Source of the DNA: a virus
Lineage: Duplodnaviria; Caudoviricetes
Virus record (IMG/VR): IMGVR_UViG_3300032253_000228
Coordinates: 1-40,974 of that record
DNA: 40,974 nt
Strand: one strand, 5' to 3'
Shown here: positions 11,392-37,676 of the stretch, piece after piece
Layout: every line of letters starts with the position of its first letter
How positions within the stretch are numbered: the first letter of the stretch is position 1
Made by a program: the position numbers and the translations under genes
The notes under the pieces: model-generated
The model's database searches: none
The model's input: only the letters and a program-made list of their open reading frames with translations
What the model was told of the DNA's origin: nothing

Positions 11392-11444
11392 TCGAAGAAC
11401 CTTTTCTATTGATCTACGGGTGTTTTTTGAATTATGGTTCGCGC

Positions 11445-11771
11445 ATGAAGAAAATTATTTTAATATCTATGCTCGTTTTAGCAGGATGTACTCAGGCCCA
11501 AGAACTCAACATCATGCGTGATGATCGCCGCGTTGTGGTCGAAGCGTCATCTTCTGAAAAATTTGATTACGTTGTGAAGGTCCGGAACGAAATGGCCGGT
11601 TACTATGACTTTGACAAAAAGGAAGATCGCGTTCGCGTGGCCAATGATTATCTGAAAGACCAATGCCCGGGACTGAAGGTTATTGAAGAGCGAAAAGTGA
11701 TTACCGGAGAATACATCACCGGCTCGCCATCCATCACCTACAGCCTGTTGATCAAGTGTGAGAGGCGTTAG
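11445..11771 (+). CDS. Counter-oriented lipoprotein (moron; superinfection-exclusion candidate)
   Basis: MKKIILISMLVLAGC lipobox; antisense to the tail operon. Confidence 0.75.
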   Translation: MKKIILISMLVLAGCTQAQELNIMRDDRRVVVEASSSEKFDYVVKVRNEMAGYYDFDKKEDRVRVANDYLKDQCPGLKVIEERKVITGEYITGSPSITYSLLIKCERR

Positions 11772-11775
11772 GATA

Positions 11776-12156
11776 ATGAAAACGTTTTTCAAAAGTATGT
11801 TCTACACGTCTCTTACTCTGCTCGCTCTTCTTCTTGTTGTGATTGTGTATAAAGGGAGTGACGACTCTCCAACAGACGCGTATCAGAAAGAAAAAGACCG
11901 AATTGCCGGATTTCATTGTCTGAGCTCTTGGGACGGTTCACATCGACAGCTTGAAAGAGACATAAAAAACAGATTGAAAGACCCTGACAGCTACGAGCAT
12001 ATTGAAACAAGTATTACGCCCGTTAATACGCAGGGCACTCATACTTTATACACCTCATTTAGAGCACGAAACGGGTTTGGCGGAATGACAATCACCAACG
12101 TTGTGGCAACTGTCAATAATAGTGATTGCACCGCGACGATAATATCAATGGAGTAA
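11776..12156 (+). CDS. Membrane-anchored periplasmic protein (moron)
   Basis: N-terminal TM helix; LKDPDSYEHIET and FRARNGFGG motifs. Confidence 0.75.
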   Translation: MKTFFKSMFYTSLTLLALLLVVIVYKGSDDSPTDAYQKEKDRIAGFHCLSSWDGSHRQLERDIKNRLKDPDSYEHIETSITPVNTQGTHTLYTSFRARNGFGGMTITNVVATVNNSDCTATIISME

Positions 12157-25578: not shown

Positions 25579-25776
25579 ATGAAAGGCAAAAACATAATGC
25601 AAAAAACGATGACAATCGAAGTTCTGACCTCCCAGATAAAGGACATGAAAGATCAGATATTCCGCGCAGAGATGTGTGACAACAGTTATGCAAACTCGGG
25701 GCGCATGGATGAAGATCATAAGCATCTTCGGCGTCTTAACGATCAACTTGCCGTGCTCCAGAAGAGCGCGGCGTAA
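25579..25776 (+). CDS. Small hypothetical protein
   Basis: ORF right after promoter/operator; alternative start at 25597. Confidence 0.6.
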   Translation: MKGKNIMQKTMTIEVLTSQIKDMKDQIFRAEMCDNSYANSGRMDEDHKHLRRLNDQLAVLQKSAA

Positions 25777-25790
25777 CCCCACACCGGTGG

Positions 25791-26180
25791 GTGGCGGTTT
25801 TCCGGTTCCGCCCGAACAGAACCAAAGACCGGAAATTATACCAGCTAGGGGGAGATGACAGGAAGGCGCGTATTGTACGCCCCCGCGATATACCGAGGTT
25901 CACTGGGCCCCTTACTTCCGAAAATGCCCAGTCCAGGTTTAATACGTGTGGCGTTGAGAAAGCTATGGGGCTGAAGAAGGGCGAAAAAATCCAGCGTCTC
26001 GGCTTCATCAGGGTCATCAGCACCCGCAAGGAAAAACTACGAGAGATCACTCAAGAAGACGTCATCAAGGAAGGCTTTCCAAACTGGGCACCGTATGATT
26101 TTTGCAAGTTCTTGACGGAGCATTATAGGTGCCGGCCAGATGCAATTGTGAACCGCATCGAGTTTGAGTATCTGGATTAG
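25791..26180 (+). CDS. ASCH-domain protein, N-terminus divergent or degraded
   Basis: VEKAMGLKKGEKI..IRVISTRKEKLREIT..DVIKEGF..VNRIEFEY is an ASCH C-terminal signature; the typical N-terminus is poorly recognisable. Confidence 0.6.
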   Translation: MAVFRFRPNRTKDRKLYQLGGDDRKARIVRPRDIPRFTGPLTSENAQSRFNTCGVEKAMGLKKGEKIQRLGFIRVISTRKEKLREITQEDVIKEGFPNWAPYDFCKFLTEHYRCRPDAIVNRIEFEYLD

Positions 26181-26216
26181 AAAGAGGATATTTCTTCATT
26201 TATTTTAATTATATTG

Positions 26217-26245
26217 TTGACACATAGGCTCTAAGCGCCTATATT
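26217..26245 (+). promoter_or_regulatory. Near-consensus sigma70 promoter
   Basis: TTGACA-17 nt-TATATT with AT-rich UP region. Confidence 0.85.
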
Positions 26246-26259
26246 AAGTCTATCAGCAG

Positions 26260-26537
26260 ACGGAACATCGAGTTCCACCAGAAAAGGGAAAATCAAAATG
26301 GCTACTCAAAAAGAAATCGCACAAGAACTTGATCATTCAGCTGCACGTGCTGGATATTCCGCAGCAACTGGAAAACAGTGCTGGTTTCTAGCAAAACTTT
26401 TACTTGAAGCTGGTGATACTCCTACAACTTGGGAAGTTGGCTACGCAAATACTAACAGCGCACTAACAAAGAAAAAAGCAAGTTTTATGATTGACGAATA
26501 TCTTAACTAAAATTTCAAACGGAACATCGAGTTCCAC
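26260..26537 (+). repeat. 19-bp direct repeat ACGGAACATCGAGTTCCAC (26260-26278, 26519-26537)
   Basis: Identical copies with internal GGAAC/GTTCC inverted repeat, each about 20 nt before a start codon. Confidence 0.92.
26298..26510 (+). CDS. Small hypothetical protein (70 aa)
   Basis: RBS, first gene after strong promoter; ATGKQCWFLAKL motif. Confidence 0.8.
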   Translation: MATQKEIAQELDHSAARAGYSAATGKQCWFLAKLLLEAGDTPTTWEVGYANTNSALTKKKASFMIDEYLN

Positions 26538-26558
26538 TAATCCATAGGAGAATGGAAA

Positions 26559-26921
26559 ATGACAAACTTTTATTTTACACACGACGTTGAAGATTATGAC
26601 CACATCGAAGAAGATGCGGTAATTGAAGTTGCAGCTTCAAAAGAAGATATGATTTCAAAATTGCTTGCTCCTTATGATCTTGAAGAAGGCGAAAAGGCAT
26701 ATTTGATCCAACTTCGGACAAGCGATTGCTGGATCAAAACAAATGATGATCCAACCCTTGAAATGATTGCACCTTTCAATATGGATCAAGTTTATGTGGC
26801 TCACGCTCACCCCGGTGTAGAGGCTTATTGGGTCTCACCAACAGAGGAAGTTTACGGAATTTACGTTGGAGATCGTGAAGACTTATACTACCCCGAAGAC
26901 GCCGAAGAAATTTCAATTTAA
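26559..26921 (+). CDS. Highly acidic hypothetical protein (120 aa)
   Basis: AGGAG RBS; Asp/Glu-rich. Confidence 0.8.
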   Translation: MTNFYFTHDVEDYDHIEEDAVIEVAASKEDMISKLLAPYDLEEGEKAYLIQLRTSDCWIKTNDDPTLEMIAPFNMDQVYVAHAHPGVEAYWVSPTEEVYGIYVGDREDLYYPEDAEEISI

Positions 26922-26928
26922 CGTAACT

Positions 26929-26956
26929 GGCGGGGTAATCCCCCGCCTTTTATTTT
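26929..26956 (+). terminator. Intrinsic terminator
   Basis: GGCGGGG-TAATC-CCCCGCC followed by TTTTATTTT. Confidence 0.85.
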
Positions 26957-26968
26957 GGAGAAAACAAT

Positions 26969-27430
26969 ATGTCCAATTTAAAAGATGCGGAACTGATGAA
27001 AGAAATCCGGGAATTAGCCGGGTTTACCCAAAGTCAAATCGCCGATGTTCTTGGGTACAGCGGCAACAGAGCCATCCGGGCAATTGAAACGGGGGATAAA
27101 TCTATGTCTGGCCCCGCCCGAGCCGCTGCCGAATATCTGGCGCAGGGGTTGCTTGATGATGATATGAAATTGATAGTGCCTGAATTTGGCTTGTTTGAAT
27201 GTTCGGCCGGCGCCGCAGTTGGTGAAATTTTACTGCGAAATTATTTCCCGCGCTTTCTTGGAATTGTTCACGACAATGAGATGCCAGGACTTGAGAATAT
27301 CAAGATATTTCCAGACCCAATGTATCTGACAATCATCAACTGGCTGGACAACCCAATCCACTCAAACAAAGATACGATTATTAAGCGGGCCGCCAGTTAT
27401 GTCGAAGGGGAGTATCAACTCGGTAGCTAA
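26969..27430 (+). CDS. XRE-family HTH protein with C-terminal extension
   Basis: IRELAGFTQSQIADVLG..IETG..SGPA. Confidence 0.85.
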   Translation: MSNLKDAELMKEIRELAGFTQSQIADVLGYSGNRAIRAIETGDKSMSGPARAAAEYLAQGLLDDDMKLIVPEFGLFECSAGAAVGEILLRNYFPRFLGIVHDNEMPGLENIKIFPDPMYLTIINWLDNPIHSNKDTIIKRAASYVEGEYQLGS

Positions 27431-27539: not shown

Positions 27540-28106
27540 CTAACCTTCTAACGCGCCGATAGCTGCTTCAATATTTACCAATCCGCTTTTATACATCGAT
27601 TCTAGATGTAGATATGCTGGAGGGGCAATTCTAGCGTGAAAACCGTTCACTTGATATGCCAGTACAGTTGCATTTGTTTTGAATGCGCTTAAACTACCAT
27701 ACGCCTTTAGAACTGGCGTTAATTCATCGGGTTCAAGTAAACCAATACTGCCGCGCTGTGCGCCAAAAATTAGGTCCAACTCATCAAGACAAACTGTCAT
27801 ATACGATGTTGGTGTTCTCGGTGCGGCCGCGAACCCATCGAGGTTGCTTACAAATATCTCTTTAACATACTTAAGCTCTTCCAAAATCGAACGTCTAAAC
27901 ACATTACACTGATGTTCCTTGTCTTCTTGGCGTTCTTGTTTTGATAATCTTGCGCTATGTTGCAAGGTCATGATAACACCCGCGAAACCCAGAATACCAA
28001 TGATTGAAGCCTCGTAATTCTTGTAACTAAACGTAGTGAAGTCACTAACAGCACTGCCAATGGCCAAACCTACAAACACTAATAGTATTCCATTTATTAA
28101 ACTCAT
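27540..28106 (-). CDS. Two-TM membrane protein (AT-rich moron)
   Basis: GGGGG RBS, ATG at 28106, two hydrophobic helices then a helical domain. Confidence 0.75.
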   Translation of the reverse strand: MSLINGILLVFVGLAIGSAVSDFTTFSYKNYEASIIGILGFAGVIMTLQHSARLSKQERQEDKEHQCNVFRRSILEELKYVKEIFVSNLDGFAAAPRTPTSYMTVCLDELDLIFGAQRGSIGLLEPDELTPVLKAYGSLSAFKTNATVLAYQVNGFHARIAPPAYLHLESMYKSGLVNIEAAIGALEG

Positions 28107-28114
28107 TTTTCCCC

Positions 28115-28762
28115 CTATATCGCCCTTATTCTGGCGTGTTTTGGCGACCTTAACCGCTTTGGGTCGATTAACCCCCGAAACTCGGCTAAGCGGTGTAACG
28201 CGATCCTGAACACGGGCAAGCCGGCACCTGATCGCCATTTCTTCTTTTTCTCGAATTCTTTCATGGTAAGACCGCGACAAACCACTTCCAGGAGAACGTC
28301 GTCAAGGTCAGGGCCGCCGACCGTATCTAGGGCGTTGTAGACTTCCTCAAGGGCTGTCAGGCCAAGTGACGCACTATCATGCTCACGGACACCGCCACGG
28401 ACCCTGTCCCCGTTCATATCGCTGATCCGGTAGCCGTTACGTCCTGCCAGTTCATAGCGGTCACGTATCCATTTTCCCGCCTCATACAAGTGCAAAGTGA
28501 ACAGCTGCGGTTTGTGAAAATGATACCAGTCGAGAGCATCCTCGATGCGCTTTGACGGCCTTGAACGGCCATCTTCTTCCTTCTTGTTGGCTACGACCAC
28601 AGTACGGCTTATTTGGCCGTCTCGCGCATAGAACAACTCGCTCGATCGTGCGTCCGGCTCTCCAACATCAACGGGACAATACGGCTGTAGTTGCCCCCCG
28701 GCTCCGTAATCAACAAATTTCTTCTCAGTGATTGACCGAGATTTGTTTTTGCCCTTCGCCAT
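28115..28762 (-). CDS. DUF6456-type late gene regulator
   Basis: EAG..R.RYE.AG, ALDTVGG, VVCRG..EKKKKW..G..VFRIALHRLA; occupies the lambda Q position. Confidence 0.7.
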   Translation of the reverse strand: MAKGKNKSRSITEKKFVDYGAGGQLQPYCPVDVGEPDARSSELFYARDGQISRTVVVANKKEEDGRSRPSKRIEDALDWYHFHKPQLFTLHLYEAGKWIRDRYELAGRNGYRISDMNGDRVRGGVREHDSASLGLTALEEVYNALDTVGGPDLDDVLLEVVCRGLTMKEFEKKKKWRSGAGLPVFRIALHRLAEFRGLIDPKRLRSPKHARIRAI

Positions 28763-29276
28763 CTTGCCCCCTCAAATATTCCTGATATTCCATTAATCCC
28801 GGCGGAACTGAACTGACACCCGACACCTTAACAGCTTCGGATAGTGGCGCCCCGCCCCTCATTCCCTGCGGCAAAGGTCCGGTCGGTTGAATGATGCATT
28901 GCCACTCTGCCGCCATCGGCCCACCACAACCATACCACTTTTTTACACGCAATACACGCGATCTGTACGGCAGTGCGAACCGCTTACGACCATCGAGCGC
29001 AAAGGTCCCGTTCTCGGTATCCACCAGCAACACAGCATGCATCTGCCCGCTAAACAGCTTGCAGATAGCTATTCGCATGCTTTGGTCAGACCAACCGAGG
29101 GCCCGCAGCTGGTAGAAATACCCGAGTGCAAAGTCCTCGCAGTCGCCTTTGGTAAAGCCGTTAAACCCGAGCGGGCGCCAAACATCGCGCTTCTCAAAGG
29201 TCTTGATATCTGGCTGATATTGATCGAGGGAATAGGTCGAGATTACCTGATTGAGTTGATCATATTTTGCCTTCAT
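28725..29276 (-). CDS. Transglutaminase-like cysteine peptidase (BTLCP / peptidase C93, LapG-like)
   Basis: GDCEDFA, HAVLLV, ALD Cys-His-Asp triad. Confidence 0.85.
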   Translation of the reverse strand: MKAKYDQLNQVISTYSLDQYQPDIKTFEKRDVWRPLGFNGFTKGDCEDFALGYFYQLRALGWSDQSMRIAICKLFSGQMHAVLLVDTENGTFALDGRKRFALPYRSRVLRVKKWYGCGGPMAAEWQCIIQPTGPLPQGMRGGAPLSEAVKVSGVSSVPPGLMEYQEYLRGQDGEGQKQISVNH

Positions 29277-29530: not shown

Positions 29531-29989
29531 CTAAATTAAGGCTTGCTGAGACTTGCCTGTCAGGTTCCCAAGCAACTTGTCGGCATGAGCAATTCGATTT
29601 TGGTAATAGGTTTCTTGCGAGATATCTGCGCGGCGGGCAGCACTCCTCATCTTTTCGAGATCATTTTCACGAACCTGTTCGATGTACATGATTTTGACTT
29701 TGATCGGCTGTTTTGTGAACCATTCGTCAAATTTCTGTTTTGTCGAAAACTTCAAATCTGACACTTTCACATTGGATTGTTGGCGCAAATGGTCGAGGTA
29801 ATGGGCTGGCTTGGGTGGTGTTTGGGTTTTCCACACCGACATAACCGAGGAATGAGCATGCTGGAGTTGCTCGTCATCGAATGGCGACAAGAGGTCAAGG
29901 AACGAATTCAGAACCTCTTTTTCCTGTTCAGCCTTCCATGGATTATCAAACATGACTTTCAGTTTTTTGAAGATATCCTGCGGTTTCAT
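29531..29989 (-). CDS. Hypothetical replication-module protein
   Basis: Coupled to the initiator; W....PPKPAH motif of helicase-loader-associated phage proteins. Confidence 0.55.
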   Translation of the reverse strand: MKPQDIFKKLKVMFDNPWKAEQEKEVLNSFLDLLSPFDDEQLQHAHSSVMSVWKTQTPPKPAHYLDHLRQQSNVKVSDLKFSTKQKFDEWFTKQPIKVKIMYIEQVRENDLEKMRSAARRADISQETYYQNRIAHADKLLGNLTGKSQQALI

Positions 29990-30798
29990 GACGCGACCCT
30001 CCGTTGTTCTGCTATGCGGTCTATCTCGTCATCGGACAGCCCCCCGCTTTCGCCTTTGAGTACTTCGAGAATGTAGGGAACCGGATCACCAGTATCGGCC
30101 TTGCGGGCTTGCTCCAAGGCTGCAATGAGGGCTGTATCCCCGTAATCCTTCAACCAGCGGCCTATGACTTTACGAGCTCTGTCCTCGGAGACATTCTTCG
30201 CCTTCAGGAAAAAAAGACCATTTTTCCAAATGACTTCCTTCACAAAAGAGGCGTTTTTCGCAGTTTCGATAGAAACTGAATTCTTAGTCTCTGTTTCTGT
30301 CTCTGTTTCCGTCTGAGTCTGTGTCTCTGTCTCTGTCTCTGTAGGGGGTAGTGTATGGATACCCGTATCTATAGGCGTATCAGGAAGGGGTAGGATACCC
30401 GTATTTTTTACTGTCTTTATTTGGCTCAACTCGTTGATAATATGTAGTTTTTGATCGCAATCAGGAAGAAGTAGCGCAGCCTTGGCCGCTCCGGCGCCAT
30501 GTTTTCCGTTGTTAATGGGCGAATGAGCAAGGAAATCGACTATCCGGACGACTTCTTCCTCCTCATTCCACCCTATTAGACCCGTATCGATACACGTATG
30601 TATAGCCGTATCTATAGCCGTATTTGAAAGGTTTAAATCGGCCATGACATACCCCTTGGGAAGTCTAAAGCACCCGATCGAATTGCCGTGCGGGCATGCC
30701 AATAAATAGATATAAAATAGCCTCGCATCATTATTCGGCAGCTTCCGAAATTTGCGTGAGCTCCATATGCTCGTTCCAAGTTTTCCGTACTCTCTCAT
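29986..30798 (-). CDS. Phage replication initiator (O-like)
   Basis: IWSSRKFRKL..ARLFYIYLL N-terminal wHTH, ETETET linker, C-terminal DPVPYI domain. Confidence 0.8.
   Translation of the reverse strand: MREYGKLGTSIWSSRKFRKLPNNDARLFYIYLLACPHGNSIGCFRLPKGYVMADLNLSNTAIDTAIHTCIDTGLIGWNEEEEVVRIVDFLAHSPINNGKHGAGAAKAALLLPDCDQKLHIINELSQIKTVKNTGILPLPDTPIDTGIHTLPPTETETETQTQTETETETETKNSVSIETAKNASFVKEVIWKNGLFFLKAKNVSEDRARKVIGRWLKDYGDTALIAALEQARKADTGDPVPYILEVLKGESGGLSDDEIDRIAEQRRVAS
30287..30625. repeat. Hexamer (TCTCTG-type) array and 12-bp CGTATCTATAG-type repeats; putative replication origin
   Basis: ET-encoding repeats at 30287-30341; CGTAT-cored repeats at about 30352-30403 and 30580-30624. Confidence 0.6.
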
Positions 30799-31445
30799 TA
30801 GCCCGCGTCCCTTAGTTCAAATTTGTCAATTTGGTTGCCCCAAGCGCTCCAGCCCGGCCATTTTTGGCGGGCAAATAGCTCGACATATGGGCCGTCAAAC
30901 ATGGTCTCAATTCGCCGGTATTGTTCATCAGGTTTACGGCTATGACCGTCGCTTCGTGCTCGAATGCAGTCCTGAGGCATATATTCAATAAAATCTCGTA
31001 CTGAGCGCGCGCCTTCAGCCGAAACGCCCTCAAATAGATCAGCGCAGTATTCTTTTTTTACGGATGGTTTTCCGCGCGTAGCCATCAAGCAAGGTTCAAG
31101 GTTTTTACGAGTTCCGTAGCCAAGGCCAAAAGCATATTTCTCTGTTTCCGAGTTGTACTTGATCCACTCCCACGCAAGACCGGCATATTCAAAACCCCAT
31201 GCTTCAATTACCTTGAGCCAAACCGGCATAAGCGGCCATGTACACCAGATAAAGAGGACGCTGTTTTTCGCCGCCAAATGTGAAACCGGCATTTTGCAGA
31301 TTTCATCAATTTCCATACAGTCATATTGAGATTTTGCGTTCTTCTCGTCGCCCTTTTCCGAGTACCCTTCAAACAGCCAAGGCGGATCAGCCAAGATCAC
31401 CTTGAAGCCGCCGTTCGGGCGCATTGCGAGGAAATCATTTTTCAT
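30798..31445 (-). CDS. MT-A70 family adenine methyltransferase
   Basis: ILADPPW, LFIW, AWGF, HSRKP, VELFAR, WGNQ motifs. Confidence 0.95.
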   Translation of the reverse strand: MKNDFLAMRPNGGFKVILADPPWLFEGYSEKGDEKNAKSQYDCMEIDEICKMPVSHLAAKNSVLFIWCTWPLMPVWLKVIEAWGFEYAGLAWEWIKYNSETEKYAFGLGYGTRKNLEPCLMATRGKPSVKKEYCADLFEGVSAEGARSVRDFIEYMPQDCIRARSDGHSRKPDEQYRRIETMFDGPYVELFARQKWPGWSAWGNQIDKFELRDAG

Positions 31446-31639
31446 GCAGCCCTCTCTTTCTTCAAATTCATCACCCACGACAGGTGCGTCAGCACGTCAT
31501 AGGCGGTTATCCAGTCGCGCCGCTTGGTGCCCTGATAACCAACGGCGGTTAAAATTTCCTCGGCTGTAATTCCTTTGCTCTTGCACCAGAAAACATGTTC
31601 TCTGGCTATATCTCGGGCGAGGGACAGGTTCATTTTCAT
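31442..31639 (-). CDS. Hypothetical protein
   Basis: ATGA-coupled at both ends; ends in ERAA. Confidence 0.6.
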   Translation of the reverse strand: MKMNLSLARDIAREHVFWCKSKGITAEEILTAVGYQGTKRRDWITAYDVLTHLSWVMNLKKERAA

Positions 31640-32400
31640 GCAACCACCTCTTGCAATATTGTGGGGTTTCGACCAACATTCCGGCCATGACTGAAACTAT
31701 TAAAGAATTCTGGAACAAGCTGAATAAACCAATCTTGATATTGGTTGCGCTTATAACGGGCGGCGTCGGGTTCATTTATTCTTACGAGCCTGCTTGGACG
31801 TGGCTGCTGAAAAAAATCGACACTGGTTTCATCACACTTCTTACAGGCGTGATTGGGTTTGCGGGATTGATTTTTGTCGCTTGGTGGAGCGGTCGACAGA
31901 ATTCGCAAGCAATTTATCAATCTGCAATGCTGCAAAAACAGCTTAGTGAAGATCAGTTGCATATAGAAAAAATTGCGAAAATTACGTATTTTATTGAAAT
32001 TTTGCACGACCTTCGGCTTCATGTAGACGAAGTTAGTAAAATGATGGATGATGTCCTGGAAGATGGTACAGAAGCGGAAGCAAAAGATTGCTTTAGTTGG
32101 ATTCAAAAATATATTTTGGATACGAGCGTACTTATTTACCCCGAAAGCATTAATGGCTTCGAATTTTTGCACAATACCGAACAGTCTATAATAGAATATT
32201 CGCTTAGAATTAGTAGTTTTACAAAGGCTATTCAGGTTGGGGTCAGTTCGGCTGAACGGCACCCTTTGAATCAGGTTCCATTGGTACTCGACAGCTGTAA
32301 AGGCTGTATTACAACTATCGATATGGCAATTAAACAGTATGAGCCATTGCTTACCAAAATTACTGATAACACTGCGGGAAAATCGACGACTTAATTCCAT
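31636..32400 (-). CDS. Antisense bridging ORF (254 aa), function unknown
   Basis: Stop-free across the whole moron; TGATG overlap upstream and ATGA overlap downstream. Confidence 0.4.
   Translation of the reverse strand: MELSRRFSRSVISNFGKQWLILFNCHIDSCNTAFTAVEYQWNLIQRVPFSRTDPNLNSLCKTTNSKRIFYYRLFGIVQKFEAINAFGVNKYARIQNIFLNPTKAIFCFRFCTIFQDIIHHFTNFVYMKPKVVQNFNKIRNFRNFFYMQLIFTKLFLQHCRLINCLRILSTAPPSDKNQSRKPNHACKKCDETSVDFFQQPRPSRLVRINEPDAARYKRNQYQDWFIQLVPEFFNSFSHGRNVGRNPTILQEVVA
31687..32394 (+). CDS. Counter-oriented two-TM membrane protein (moron)
   Basis: AT-rich; two N-terminal TM helices; candidate promoter TTGCAA-17 nt-CAACAT just before the ATG. Confidence 0.75.
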   Translation: MTETIKEFWNKLNKPILILVALITGGVGFIYSYEPAWTWLLKKIDTGFITLLTGVIGFAGLIFVAWWSGRQNSQAIYQSAMLQKQLSEDQLHIEKIAKITYFIEILHDLRLHVDEVSKMMDDVLEDGTEAEAKDCFSWIQKYILDTSVLIYPESINGFEFLHNTEQSIIEYSLRISSFTKAIQVGVSSAERHPLNQVPLVLDSCKGCITTIDMAIKQYEPLLTKITDNTAGKSTT

Positions 32401-32759
32401 CACACCGCCCCCCATTTATTCAAAGCCACGTCAATTTCCTCTATCGTTTTTGCCACGATGTAGGGCGCCGATATGGCGTCACAGCATTGCTCGAAGATTT
32501 TCTGTTTATCCGATTGAGTACCCTTTGGCGCTTTGAGCTCGACGAACCCAACTCTTGCCCCTGCCCCGTCGCTCCAGACAAAGACGAGATCCGCAACACC
32601 GGCCTTTACGCCCGTTGCTTTCAGGATGCCGGACTCAGCCTTGGAACGCCGGCCCCCATTAGGTACAGAGAAGTACATCAGCATTGGATATTGCCATCCG
32701 AGCCATTCAACGACGGTGCGTTGAAATAGCTCTTCAGGCTGATTGCGGCGTTTAGGCAT
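32400..32759 (-). CDS. VRR-NUC domain nuclease / Holliday junction resolvase
   Basis: VPNGGRR, GVKAGVADL, FVELKAPKG.QS..QK motifs. Confidence 0.92.
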   Translation of the reverse strand: MPKRRNQPEELFQRTVVEWLGWQYPMLMYFSVPNGGRRSKAESGILKATGVKAGVADLVFVWSDGAGARVGFVELKAPKGTQSDKQKIFEQCCDAISAPYIVAKTIEEIDVALNKWGAV

Positions 32760-33162
32760 TGGCGGTCTGTTCGGTTATTTTTTCGAACTCGCCTTCTTTG
32801 CCTTTTATCGTGATGCTTGTTCCGGGGTTTTGACGGACATATCTTTTTAACCCGTCAAAAAGGATGCTTTTCGATTTTTCGGGGTCTTCAAGATCACCAA
32901 CACCAAATAAATCCGGCTGAAACATTCCAAGGGCTTCAGTGTAAATGTTGATCATATACGACTGCTCTTGAACGTCGGCCTTGTCCATTTTGCGAATTTT
33001 GATAATTGCCCGCATAGCCTTAACGTCAAAGCCGGTTCCTTTTGCCTCTGCAAAAATTTCCTTGATATCATCAGCCAATGATTTCTTTTCTTCTTCCAAC
33101 CGCTCGATCCGCTCAATAAATGAACGTAGATGTTCTCCAGCGACGCCATTAACGTTTGCCAT
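32752..33162 (-). CDS. gapR: GapR / DUF2312 nucleoid-associated protein homologue
   Basis: LRSFIERIERLEEEKKSLADDIKEIFAEAKGTGFD. Confidence 0.93.
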   Translation of the reverse strand: MANVNGVAGEHLRSFIERIERLEEEKKSLADDIKEIFAEAKGTGFDVKAMRAIIKIRKMDKADVQEQSYMINIYTEALGMFQPDLFGVGDLEDPEKSKSILFDGLKRYVRQNPGTSITIKGKEGEFEKITEQTANA

Positions 33163-33201
33163 TTTATTGCCTTTCATGTGTCCAAAGTTAAAGTTTGAAA
33201 G

Positions 33202-33663
33202 TCAGCGAATAGACGTGACTTTCGACTCGATCATCGCCCGGCCCTGTGCTTCCAGCGCCCGGGCCAGTTCGATTAATTGCGGCCCCATTGCGGCCCGATC
33301 TCTGTGACAGAATTTTCCGTCTTTCAGCCGCTCAGCCATTTCTGCGCAATGCCTGGAAAGTTCGGCCATTGTTCCCGGTGCATCAACATTCTGAGGCTCG
33401 ATGATTTCCACACCGCCAAGACCGGCGGGCCTCAAGGCTTCTGACATGAATGACGGGGGAAGATGCAAGGCCAGATTAAGCAGGGTTGCAAAGCTGGGAA
33501 TGTGATTGCCTTCAAGGATGGCGTAGATCGACTTGTCAGCCATCCCGCTACTACCCGCCAGATCAGAAACAGAGACTTGCTTCGTCCTGCCCACATACCG
33601 GCGAAGGGCATCGGTGACGACCTCCTGAACCACATCGGTAGAAATTACAGTTCTTTTTTCCAT
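33202..33663 (-). CDS. CII-like phage regulatory protein
   Basis: HTH N-terminus, DGKFCHRD motif, position after cro. Confidence 0.6.
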   Translation of the reverse strand: MEKRTVISTDVVQEVVTDALRRYVGRTKQVSVSDLAGSSGMADKSIYAILEGNHIPSFATLLNLALHLPPSFMSEALRPAGLGGVEIIEPQNVDAPGTMAELSRHCAEMAERLKDGKFCHRDRAAMGPQLIELARALEAQGRAMIESKVTSIR

Positions 33664-33687
33664 AGGGATGCCCCTTCGATTTGTGAT

Positions 33688-33927
33688 TTAAAGAGTTCTA
33701 GGACGGGAATTGTGAAATACAGCCCGCTCTTTTCCGATTACTTCGGGAAAGAAATCGGCCGGTTTCACAGCACCATTTGTTGCTTTTGTGATTTTGTGCA
33801 TCATTTTTTGCGAAGGGCCTCGTTTGCCCGCAATTATTCGCGCAAGATGACTGGTGCTAACCTCGATCTTTCGAGCGAGCTCAGAAATAGACATGTCGTT
33901 TTTGTTTAAAAAATCGGCGAGCTGCAT
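33688..33927 (-). CDS. cro: Cro-like HTH repressor
   Basis: MQLADFL..ELARKI, ITKATNGAVKPADFF; divergent from cI. Confidence 0.88.
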   Translation of the reverse strand: MQLADFLNKNDMSISELARKIEVSTSHLARIIAGKRGPSQKMMHKITKATNGAVKPADFFPEVIGKERAVFHNSRPRTL

Positions 33928-34069: not shown

Positions 34070-34627
34070 ATGACTAACCTTCTTCGAGAAATCCGAGAGT
34101 CGAAAGGCTTGTCTGGTCGTGAACTAGCAAAACGCTCAGGCCTGTCTCCCGCGTTTATTTCACGAATGGAAAGAGGCGAGAGAAATATCTCTATTCATCA
34201 ACTAGAGAAACTGGCGGAAGCTCTCTCAGTCACTCCAGGTGATCTGGTAGAAAGACAGCTAAAGCCTTTCGCCATTCCCTATCTCGGCGAAGCAACAGCA
34301 GAGGGCATCACAAAAGACGGTTTTATGCCGGACGCCTTCAGTTTTGACTTTGATAAGAGAACGCATGTCGTCGTAGAGGTTAAAACGAGTTTCGAAGGTT
34401 TCGTTTCAGGAGACCACCTTTTCGCAAAAAGAATGGACAGCACAGAAGACGCCCTCAATAAACTTTGTATAGTGAAAATCGAGGGTATCGAAAAGCCTGT
34501 TATTCGCCGTTTAATAGCTGGATCAAAAGTAGATAGATTTACGCTGGTTGGATCAACTGAAACGCTTACAGACATCAAAGTCGATTGGGTCGCATTGATT
34601 CTGTTTAAACTACAGAGCGTTTCCTGA
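34070..34627 (+). CDS. cI: CI-like repressor (XRE HTH plus degenerate S24 domain)
   Basis: LREIRESKGLSGRELA..ISRMERG..LAEAL; C-terminal S24-like fold; divergent from cro. Confidence 0.88.
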   Translation: MTNLLREIRESKGLSGRELAKRSGLSPAFISRMERGERNISIHQLEKLAEALSVTPGDLVERQLKPFAIPYLGEATAEGITKDGFMPDAFSFDFDKRTHVVVEVKTSFEGFVSGDHLFAKRMDSTEDALNKLCIVKIEGIEKPVIRRLIAGSKVDRFTLVGSTETLTDIKVDWVALILFKLQSVS

Positions 34628-34762: not shown

Positions 34763-34895
34763 CTATATAGGTGAACTATGCTGAAAATGATTAAGCGGAT
34801 TTTGCGGCGTGTAGAGAGAAAAAAACGCCAGCCACTTTCACCAACATTTCGCACAGTGCTCGCCTATCACATCGAGGGAGCGACACCGAAGCAAA

Positions 34896-35831
34896 ATGAC
34901 AAATATTACTAAAGACGAGCGTCGCAACTTTGTCGGCGCGTCCGAGGTTTCCGCCCTGTTTGGCGTACATCCTCAGATAACACTTTTTGAACTCTGGCAT
35001 CGAAAAGCGGGCAATCTTGAAGAGCCCGATTTGTCAGACGTTGAGCGGATATTCTGGGGGCAGACTTTGGAACCCGCCATAGCAAAAGGTATTGCTGAGC
35101 AAGAGAATTGGAAAATTCGCAACGTGAGGCGCTACATCACACATCCAACGATAGGCGGTATGGGTGCTAGCCTTGACTTTGAAGTCCTCAAAGACAAGCA
35201 CGGCTCAGGCGTTCTCGAAATCAAGAATGTTGACCGGTTGATTTATCGAAATTGGCCTGAGGGCGAGGCCCCGCTGTACTTCCAGCTGCAAGTGCAGCAT
35301 CAGCTTTCTGTTTCTCGAAAAGCGTGGGGCGCAGTCGGTGCTCTGGTCGGCGGCAACGAGCCTGTTGTCTTCAAAATGGATCGGCATGAAGGCGCGATAA
35401 AGAAGATCGAACAGGCGGTTGAAGCTTTTTGGCTTTCCATCAAAGAAGGGCAAGAACCATCCCCTGATTTTTCTCAGGATCAAGACGCCATCGGGGAGCT
35501 CTACGGCTCCTCAACCCCCGGCAAGTTCCTCGATATGACCGGCGAAGATCACTTTGAAGAACTCTGCCGAACCTATGACGAGGCCCGAGCGGCTGAACGG
35601 TTCGAGAAGTCGCGCAAAGATACTGCAAAGGCTGAAATTCTGACGCTCAGCGAAGAGGCCGAACAGATCAGGTGCGAACCCTACACGATCAACCGGAAAA
35701 ACAACTTTCGGCTATTCAAGATATCTCGGAATGAAGAGCTCGACACGTTGTCGTCTCCCCCTACCCCCGATTTACCGGCGACCAGAATTAGGACGTCACC
35801 ACCGCTCGGCAAGCAAGCGAGCATCTTCTAA
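34896..35831 (+). CDS. YqaJ-like viral recombinase exonuclease
   Basis: RRNFVGASEV, WGQTLEP, ASLD, LEIKN, QVQHQL motifs. Confidence 0.93.
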   Translation: MTNITKDERRNFVGASEVSALFGVHPQITLFELWHRKAGNLEEPDLSDVERIFWGQTLEPAIAKGIAEQENWKIRNVRRYITHPTIGGMGASLDFEVLKDKHGSGVLEIKNVDRLIYRNWPEGEAPLYFQLQVQHQLSVSRKAWGAVGALVGGNEPVVFKMDRHEGAIKKIEQAVEAFWLSIKEGQEPSPDFSQDQDAIGELYGSSTPGKFLDMTGEDHFEELCRTYDEARAAERFEKSRKDTAKAEILTLSEEAEQIRCEPYTINRKNNFRLFKISRNEELDTLSSPPTPDLPATRIRTSPPLGKQASIF

Positions 35832-36647: not shown

Positions 36648-37676
36648 ATGTCAAATCAAGCACTCGCCATCAAGCAAGAAGCGAACACGGTTCGCGCGAC
36701 ACTTGAGAAAATGCAGCCTCAGCTTCAAGCGGCGCTACCCCGACACATTACCCCCGAGCGCCTAGTTCGCGTGGCAATGTCAGCCATTCAGAACACGCCG
36801 AAGCTTTTGCAGTGCAATCGTCAAAGCCTGTTCTCGGCGATCATGACATGCGCTCAACTCGGACTGGAGCCAGACGGCGTTTTGGGGCAAGCCTACCTGA
36901 TACCCTTCAAGGACAAAGTTCAATTCATTCCAGGTTATCGCGGGCTAATCACTCTCGCCCGCAATTCAGGCGAAGTCTCCAGCATACAGGCGCAAGCCGT
37001 GTATCAAAATGACGACTTCAAATATCAATTTGGCCTGAACGAACGGCTTGATCATGTGCCGGCTGAAGGAGATCGCGGGGAAATTACCCATTTCTACGCA
37101 ATGGCAAAATTTAAAGACGGTGGGCATCACTGGGATGTTCTCACTGTTGAAATGATCGAGAGCATTCGAAACAAGTCGGACGGCTACAAAGCTGCCGTTC
37201 GCTTTGCCAAAACAGACAAGGCGGGGAACAAAATCATTCGCAGCCCTTGGACAGATCATTTTGAAGAAATGGGCCGGAAGACCGCAATCAGACGGATCGC
37301 CAAATACTTGCCGATGGATGTGCAAAAGGCGGCCTTTATTGCCGATAGTTACGACACAGGACGACATTCGGCCATCGTCAACGGCGATCTCGTTATCGAT
37401 GCACCAACCGAAGAGCAAGACGTCATCGAGGACAACCGCGAGGACACAACGAGCCAACTTGACCAGTTTGCAACCGAAGACGGGGCAGAAGCGGAAACAC
37501 AGAAGGAAGAGAAGGCCGAGACGCTCGAAGAGCATGCTTACAAACTTGGCTTCGATGCCTTTCAAAATGGCGGGGATAGTACGCCCCCCACCAAATACAA
37601 CAAGGCATGCGCCAACGCCTATACCGCAGGGTTTAACGACGGAGAGAAAGACTTCTTTGCAAAGGAAGAGGCCTAA
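36648..37676 (+). CDS. recT: RecT family single-strand annealing protein
   Basis: ALPRHITPER, AQLGLEP..LGQAYLIPF, GYRGLI, EMGRKTAIRR..KYLP. Confidence 0.96.
   Translation: MSNQALAIKQEANTVRATLEKMQPQLQAALPRHITPERLVRVAMSAIQNTPKLLQCNRQSLFSAIMTCAQLGLEPDGVLGQAYLIPFKDKVQFIPGYRGLITLARNSGEVSSIQAQAVYQNDDFKYQFGLNERLDHVPAEGDRGEITHFYAMAKFKDGGHHWDVLTVEMIESIRNKSDGYKAAVRFAKTDKAGNKIIRSPWTDHFEEMGRKTAIRRIAKYLPMDVQKAAFIADSYDTGRHSAIVNGDLVIDAPTEEQDVIEDNREDTTSQLDQFATEDGAEAETQKEEKAETLEEHAYKLGFDAFQNGGDSTPPTKYNKACANAYTAGFNDGEKDFFAKEEA

Follow-up and report, generated by a model that had tools for sequence, protein, structure and literature searches.

The locus considered here raises the question of why a gene set backwards in a phage early operon lies, along its whole length, within a stop-free reading frame of the operon strand. 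The DNA analysed (the window) is the genome of a temperate tailed phage, with 40,974 bp and a GC content of 0.49. The original prediction from this sequence offered two answers: selection for an operon strand that can be translated through the insert, or a real two-strand gene pair, for instance a defence protein and its antidote. In the following, the open frame is called the bridge and the counter-oriented gene the + gene.

The phage and its early operon

The genes of the phage recognised by Pfam encode an integrase, RecT, YqaJ, a divergent repressor/Cro pair, a GapR-like protein, VRR-NUC, MT-A70, terminase, portal and capsid. The contig runs past the integrase into host DNA and the phage is therefore integrated. 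The host is probably alphaproteobacterial, judging from the GapR-like gene and the Sneathiella labels on two homologues of the + protein. No tRNA was detected in the right flank, and a single DNA sequencing run, which may itself be the source, contained no variant within the insert.

The early operon is placed on the - strand and runs from Cro towards a replication initiator or helicase loader (Table 1). With the bridge included, all operon junctions from the GapR-like gene to a 152-aa gene located after the replication gene overlap by 1 to 8 nt. The 65-aa gene that follows the bridge gave no Pfam or PHROG family. The early operon also contains a transglutaminase-like cysteine peptidase (PF06035, window 28725-29276), and a short repeat coding a Thr-Glu run in the replication gene (window 30279-30349) is a contig breakpoint. 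The other early operon is headed, in the position of N in lambda, by a 44-aa Arg-rich ORF (window 34778-34912) that could be an antiterminator or a chance frame.

No close relative of the locus was found among viral contigs with VRR-NUC, the + protein, the 65-aa protein and the family alignment as queries, and a metagenome scan returned solely the window's own contig. A genome scan gave one chromosomal member of the + family. Among 39 genomes of the Sneathiella family, VRR-NUC had one distant match and the cII-like protein none.

Geometry of the overlap

The + gene had been described as lying wholly inside a 254-codon - strand ORF in the same codon register, and both the coordinates and the register were confirmed. 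Its other two antisense frames contain 11 and 25 stops. The junctions were also as described: the bridge starts at a TGATG shared with the VRR-NUC stop (gap -1) and ends at an ATGA shared with the 65-aa gene at 31639 (gap -4), whose GAGGTG occupies 31650-31645. The anti-SD pairing at the bridge start equals in strength that of other operon genes, and an alternative in-frame ATG at 32415 has almost no SD pairing. The absence of TTA, CTA and TCA from the + gene holds for all of its 25 Leu and 17 Ser codons. The description of the gene as Leu/Ser-rich stands as a slight excess (10.6% and 7.2%) and not as a strong one, the other genes having 8.3% and 6.7%.

Table 1. Features of the early region around the bridge (positions in the window).
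Feature	Position	Strand	Details
Repressor (cI-like HTH), divergent	34070..34627	+	PF01381
Cro-like HTH gene	33688-33927	-	Early operon upstream of the bridge (32752..33927)
cII-like gene	33202-33663	-	Label taken from position
GapR-like gene	32752-33162	-	Upstream early operon
VRR-NUC nuclease gene	32400..32759	-	PF08774, E 2e-4, below cut-off; homologues carry the family; TGA overlaps the bridge ATG
SD-like G run for the bridge start	32408..32413	-	Within the VRR-NUC 3' end; anti-SD duplex -9.3 kcal/mol
Bridge	31636..32400	-	Operon strand; stop-free, 254 codons, codon-aligned with the + gene
Counter-oriented accessory gene (+ gene)	31687..32394	+	235 aa; GC 0.40; no TTA/CTA/TCA; coding score 3.1
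C-rich, weakly folded operon-strand RNA	32013..32130	-	C/G up to 3.25 (78-nt windows), -8 to -9.5 kcal/mol; candidate Rho loading site if untranslated
Putative + gene promoter	31651..31679	+	TTGCAA, 17 nt, CAACAT; ends 7 nt before the ATG; read by eye
SD of the 65-aa gene (GAGGTG)	31645..31650	-	In the final codons of the bridge; abuts the putative -35; -7.9 kcal/mol
65-aa gene	31442..31639	-	ATGA-coupled to the bridge stop and, by a second ATGA, to MT-A70; coding score 4.9
MT-A70 adenine methyltransferase	30798..31445	-	PF05063, E 4e-26
Replication initiator or helicase loader	29986..30798	-	Downstream of the bridge; phrog_1701, E 1e-19

The counter-oriented gene and its family

A full profile search gave six homologues of the + protein (E 2e-30 to 3e-9, 21-30% identity), a seventh, weak repeat-protein match being excluded; a word search gave no relative. 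The protein matched no Pfam or PHROG family, the HEPN domain that characterises Tha included. A fold search of viral structures returned no match at E < 0.001, the structural look-alikes in the Atlas were below TM 0.5 by query, and PADLOC found nothing meaningful in the family (best E 0.002, one member). Two hydrophobic or membrane segments are placed near the N-terminus, at about 15-33 and 47-65, and the model is all-helical, formed by a long helix and a helical bundle (mean pLDDT 78.6). As judged from sequence and model, the + gene is a real accessory gene for a predicted membrane protein, set backwards in the early operon. By analogy only, the protein might have a role in phage exclusion.

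The gene shares several features with morons: it is located amid conserved phage modules (VRR-NUC, MT-A70), its family stands alone in host chromosomes, and its GC content is lower than that of the phage (0.40 versus 0.49). A terminator of its own is not among these features, the scan for intrinsic terminators in 31300-32800 having returned none.

There is no SD pairing upstream of 31687, and the start of the + gene is likely leaderless. A consensus promoter scan did not detect the putative promoter listed in Table 1; alphaproteobacterial promoters are described as often deviating from the E. coli -10 consensus. The N-terminal extensions of two homologues (P0024 and P0025) align without gaps to window codons -22 to -1, with Ser at -17 (TCA in the window, which is the stop of the bridge), Leu at -12 (where the TTGCAA of the -35 starts), Cys at -9 and Ile at -3. 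At the protein level (24-25% identity), this alignment suggests that both homologues share the same junction and leaderless promoter. P0024 lies on a contig equal in length (46,006 bp) to the one that carries the closest VRR-NUC homologue, P0003.

The 39 Sneathiella-family genomes contain seven matches to the + family. One, broken by a stop, was excluded and six intact ones were kept, four of which have a weak or partial profile match. The six chromosomal members adjoin housekeeping or tRNA genes and contain 16, 22, 13, 6, 2 and 8 TTA/CTA/TCA codons, corresponding to 67 per 244 Leu/Ser codons, with stops in all three antisense frames; the open antisense ORF is absent from all six. The chromosomal members carry the stop codons, and the open frame is therefore linked to a place in the operon and not to the family.

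Codon usage and coding status

The codon test proposed for the missing TTA, CTA and TCA was run and places the chance of a zero count at about 1e-4 to 1e-6 per gene. Codon usage of the window gives a probability of 1.4e-4, conditioning on codon blocks gives 4.4e-4, and the usage of the window's AT-rich genes about 2e-6; when 1311 control genes are used to fit a beta-binomial null, the value is about 1e-6. Resampling 200,000 times from the codon usage of the six family members never gave a zero count. A-ending codons are absent from the TTR/CTN/TCN blocks (0/32) versus 23/93 in seven others (Fisher p 9e-4), and out of frame the three triplets occur 35 times in the gene. A general avoidance of A-ending codons was considered and rejected, given their use outside the three blocks.

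Shadow ORFs of GC-rich genes are codon-aligned antisense frames that follow from high GC3. The bridge resembles them in its register and in its non-coding composition. Unlike them (6/706 in-run genes are doubly coupled), it is coupled at both ends and covers an AT-rich gene (GC3 0.33-0.40) in which ATA, GTA, ACA and GCA are freely used; neither the high GC3 nor the general avoidance of A-ending codons that mark a codon-bias shadow is found in the + gene. Among control genes of at least 200 codons with GC3 < 0.45, 0/173 have any open antisense frame, and such frames are frequent in GC-rich controls (43/164 at GC3 above 0.75). Two caveats apply: recT in the window (GC3 0.57) includes a run of 235 codons without TTA, CTA or TCA, and under a simple model 0.04 fully open genes of at least 200 codons would be expected per window. 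The feature is real and its origin by chance very unlikely.

Within the run in recT (window 36648-37676) there is a 199-aa antisense ORF. A second AT-rich membrane-type gene, co-oriented and placed at the end of the early operon (window 27540-28106), contains 14 TTA/CTA/TCA codons and forms an internal contrast.

The - ORF has no homologue and no Pfam or PHROG family. Its best value in the Atlas was 0.86, with low recognition (900), and its composition is shadow-like (28 Phe, 24 Asn, 9 Cys). An amino-acid coding classifier with a cross-validated AUC of about 0.99 scored it at -1.2 versus 3.1 for the + ORF.

Bridged and unbridged genes in other phages

The cohort was formed by 80 GapR-anchored and 80 VRR-NUC-anchored viral loci, in which genes of at least 100 codons were scored automatically. 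Its counts may contain duplicates, include gene-caller errors (the 'insert' of L083 is a miscall according to Pfam, and that of L158 probably too), and are diluted by several 'counter-oriented' genes that are repressors or operon genes. In the first 83 loci (L001-L083), at GC3 < 0.6, TTA/CTA/TCA are absent from 7/34 counter-oriented genes (0.6 expected) versus 2/109 in-run genes (p 6e-4). Frames open and coupled at both ends cover 7/34 versus 0/109 (p 3e-5); these seven bridged genes come from four loci and are not independent, and the coupling control is imperfect, since whatever the insert, real starts will be close to its ends. With all GC levels taken together, 11/101 counter-oriented versus 6/706 in-run genes are doubly coupled, and zero counts are not enriched (29/101 versus 198/706, p 0.49).

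In the longest example, L047:2705-6546, two ATGA-joined frames (385 and 895 codons) cover three counter-oriented genes (3.1 kb), of which two have Pfam pentapeptide repeats. The 895-codon frame spans two genes, and the bridge ends by ATGA on an HTH replication-type gene. An 870-codon frame covers two genes in L066 and leads towards a primase; two bridged genes precede the replication initiator in L052:2349-3960, one follows cII in L039:5244-5657, and L010 is partly bridged. The cohort bridges follow cII-like genes and mostly precede replication genes. Nine bridges have no mutual similarity, and their cargo genes are unrelated to the + gene. A homologue of the bridged L039 gene, placed beside the repressor in L023, contains 7 TTA/CTA/TCA codons.

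Some further observations concern these loci. The 895-codon frame of L047 seems to continue in frame into a small real gene that precedes the replication gene. In L066 (2356-7228), coupled frames follow one another through nearly the whole early operon, and two of them, 321 and 870 codons long, bridge three counter-oriented genes. Another bridged insert is present at L027:11725-12699, and most of the inserts of L052, L039 and L027 have ATGA at both ends. L037, related to L039, diverges near the insert site.

The remaining 27 of the 34 low-GC3 counter-oriented genes are unbridged. Those that were labelled lie after an antiterminator, before terS or beside repressors, or are themselves homing endonucleases or a transposase, a sorting of cases outside the early operon that is post hoc and covers a subset only. 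Six of the seven other counter-oriented genes of the window (tail region and pre-terS island) are stopped in all three antisense frames, and the seventh, with 65 aa, has one frame open. Two of the unbridged genes, lipoprotein-like and membrane-anchored by eye, are placed in the head-tail operon (window 11409-12156); another unbridged group comprises five + strand genes, including an HTH protein, from the DUF6456 gene to terS (window 25579-27430).

Loci L084-L160 (77 loci, mostly GC 0.3-0.45) are likely from Bacteroidota phages, and one of their 20 counter-oriented genes is open, probably a miscall; many of their inserts adjoin VRR-NUC. In the low-GC phages L088-L159, a small counter-oriented gene of DNA-binding type often comes directly after VRR-NUC, unbridged. 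Lambda (NC_001416) and 80 lambdoid loci, 59 of them with a match to lambda N, were also examined. The 20 copies of sieB have 9-10 stops in the aligned frame, and the longest opposite ORF has 41 aa. A 164-aa counter-oriented gene beside N in three lambdoid prophages (L190:1181-1684) has 2 antisense stops (2 of 27) where 10 are expected, a depleted and not an open frame. The lambdoid result is consistent with a rule for early transcripts that lack protection; two families underlie it, one of which is depleted.

A probable ribosome relay across the insert

The open - frame is probably a ribosome relay, whose product is itself probably irrelevant. Ribosomes that terminate on VRR-NUC would restart at the TGATG, cross the insert and restart at the ATGA on the next gene. 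In this way the relay would shield 765 nt of C-rich RNA from Rho, with continued expression of the methylase and replication genes. As described in PMC12360218, RNA that is not translated leaves Rho sites accessible and causes silencing of the genes downstream, an effect from which the N and Q proteins of lambda give protection. The operon-strand RNA of the insert has a C/G ratio of 1.21 versus 0.74-0.88 in 8/9 other early genes; the ninth, the 152-aa gene, is also C-rich (1.15). A Sneathiella genome with a + family member encodes Rho, and the relay likely prevents Rho polarity. After induction, the insert would be transcribed through and the bridge translated. The + gene would be expressed in the lysogen from its leaderless promoter and silenced by the opposing lytic transcript. 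This phage may have an N-like antiterminator, which would speak against the relay.

The first answer of the original prediction, selection on the operon strand, is supported by the codon-specific avoidance, the stops in the family outside operons and the coupled unrelated inserts; for ribosome passage and Rho pressure the support is by inference. A wider rule, about as likely as not, would be that in proteobacterial temperate phages without N-type antitermination the backward cargo of early operons is recoded, so that a meaningless translated frame relays ribosomes.

Alternative explanations

The main rival of the relay is a functional antisense protein, such as a lytic-phase inhibitor of the + protein (as in Tha/Ith) or a second exclusion protein (as in phage Fc02). 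The good SD and the coupled ATG would suit it, precedents are described in PMC11087260 and PMC9936078, and the layout is appropriate for expression in opposite phases of the life cycle. On the other hand, the - ORF has neither homologue nor family, its composition and Atlas recognition are those given above, and the six chromosomal relatives of the + gene lack it. The + family is also very divergent for a doubly constrained gene, and the nine bridges do not resemble each other. This reading is unlikely, and the second answer of the original prediction, the defence protein and its antidote, received little support from the same evidence. The frame could alternatively be translated mainly to silence the + gene, either by ribosome-backed polymerases winning head-on collisions or by stabilised antisense RNA, turning off a self-harming defence gene during lysis. 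Noncontiguous operons do switch opposed genes via antisense transcription (PMC11034616, PMC11087260), and the putative + promoter is within the bridge. This promoter is placed at the far end, so that read-through would also be required, which is compatible with the relay; silencing alone, moreover, needs no ATGA hand-over to the next gene, and as the main purpose it is decidedly improbable.

A shadow ORF arising by chance or from codon bias, selected from many windows, would draw on the frequent open frames of GC-rich genes, the recT run and the small number expected per window. It is largely refuted, and is given very little probability, by the AT-rich composition of the + gene and its free use of other A-ending codons, by the matched controls and by the recurrence of doubly coupled frames elsewhere. 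The frame might finally be a historical remnant, now needless, either of a once-real operon gene on which the + gene was overprinted or of junctions inherited from the insertion site. VRR-NUC ends here and in P0003, its 70%-identical homologue, about 10 residues before the end of four homologues, and insertion may have taken place in the former VRR-NUC 3' end, with inheritance of the SD and ATGA. However, the + family has no open antisense frame elsewhere, and an unselected frame would acquire stops at about 0.27 per Leu/Ser codon; a remnant is hardly credible.

Relation to known systems and significance

The locus resembles the noncontiguous operons of PMC11034616 (the S. aureus men operon and phage 80alpha), in which an opposite-strand gene with its own promoter interrupts an operon and expression is likely mutually exclusive; here too, same-strand genes lie on both sides of the opposite-strand + gene. 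In that account the antisense stretch is untranslated and its survival is explained by runaway transcription in Gram-positives, whereas here the stretch is open, coupled at both ends and part of an alphaproteobacterial phage. Tha/Ith of S. aureus prophages (PMC11087260) is likewise an opposite-strand prophage pair with expression in opposite phases of the life cycle, but there the antisense gene, a small functional inhibitor, is placed within the lysogenic operon and a HEPN domain is present in Tha, while the long ORF here looks non-coding and the family searches gave neither HEPN nor any other match. The olg1/gene 10 pair of Pseudomonas phage Fc02 (PMC9936078) shares the antisense overlap in the early lytic operon of a temperate phage; both of its products are expressed and exclude phages, and its overlap is presented without mention of a relay over an insert.

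Ambigrammatic narnaviruses (PMC8316113) have a reverse ORF without homologues over a real gene. They require this ORF to be translated, and the proposal is that translating it is more important than the protein made. They are eukaryotic RNA viruses without operon, coupling or Rho, in contrast to the temperate tailed phage described here. In lambda, sieB (NC_001416) is also a membrane-type accessory gene set backwards in the early (pL) operon, downstream of N, but it is unbridged and lambda early transcripts are protected by N (PMC12360218). In the literature, judged by titles and abstract openings with subscription journals mostly outside the search, no open, coupled frames across counter-oriented phage genes were found.

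The relay is a candidate answer to the problem posed by PMC11034616, namely how, in cells that couple transcription to translation, a transcript can persist through a long antisense stretch that is not translated. There would also be a risk for annotation, as the bridge may be called in place of the real gene. If the relay is true, synonymous codons would be selected for the sake of the opposite strand, some long 'spurious' antisense ORFs would gain a function, and counter-oriented prophage cargo would become a searchable class. Under the wider rule, junk translation would replace antitermination, and a lysogeny gene would be silenced by the lytic transcript with the downstream genes unharmed.
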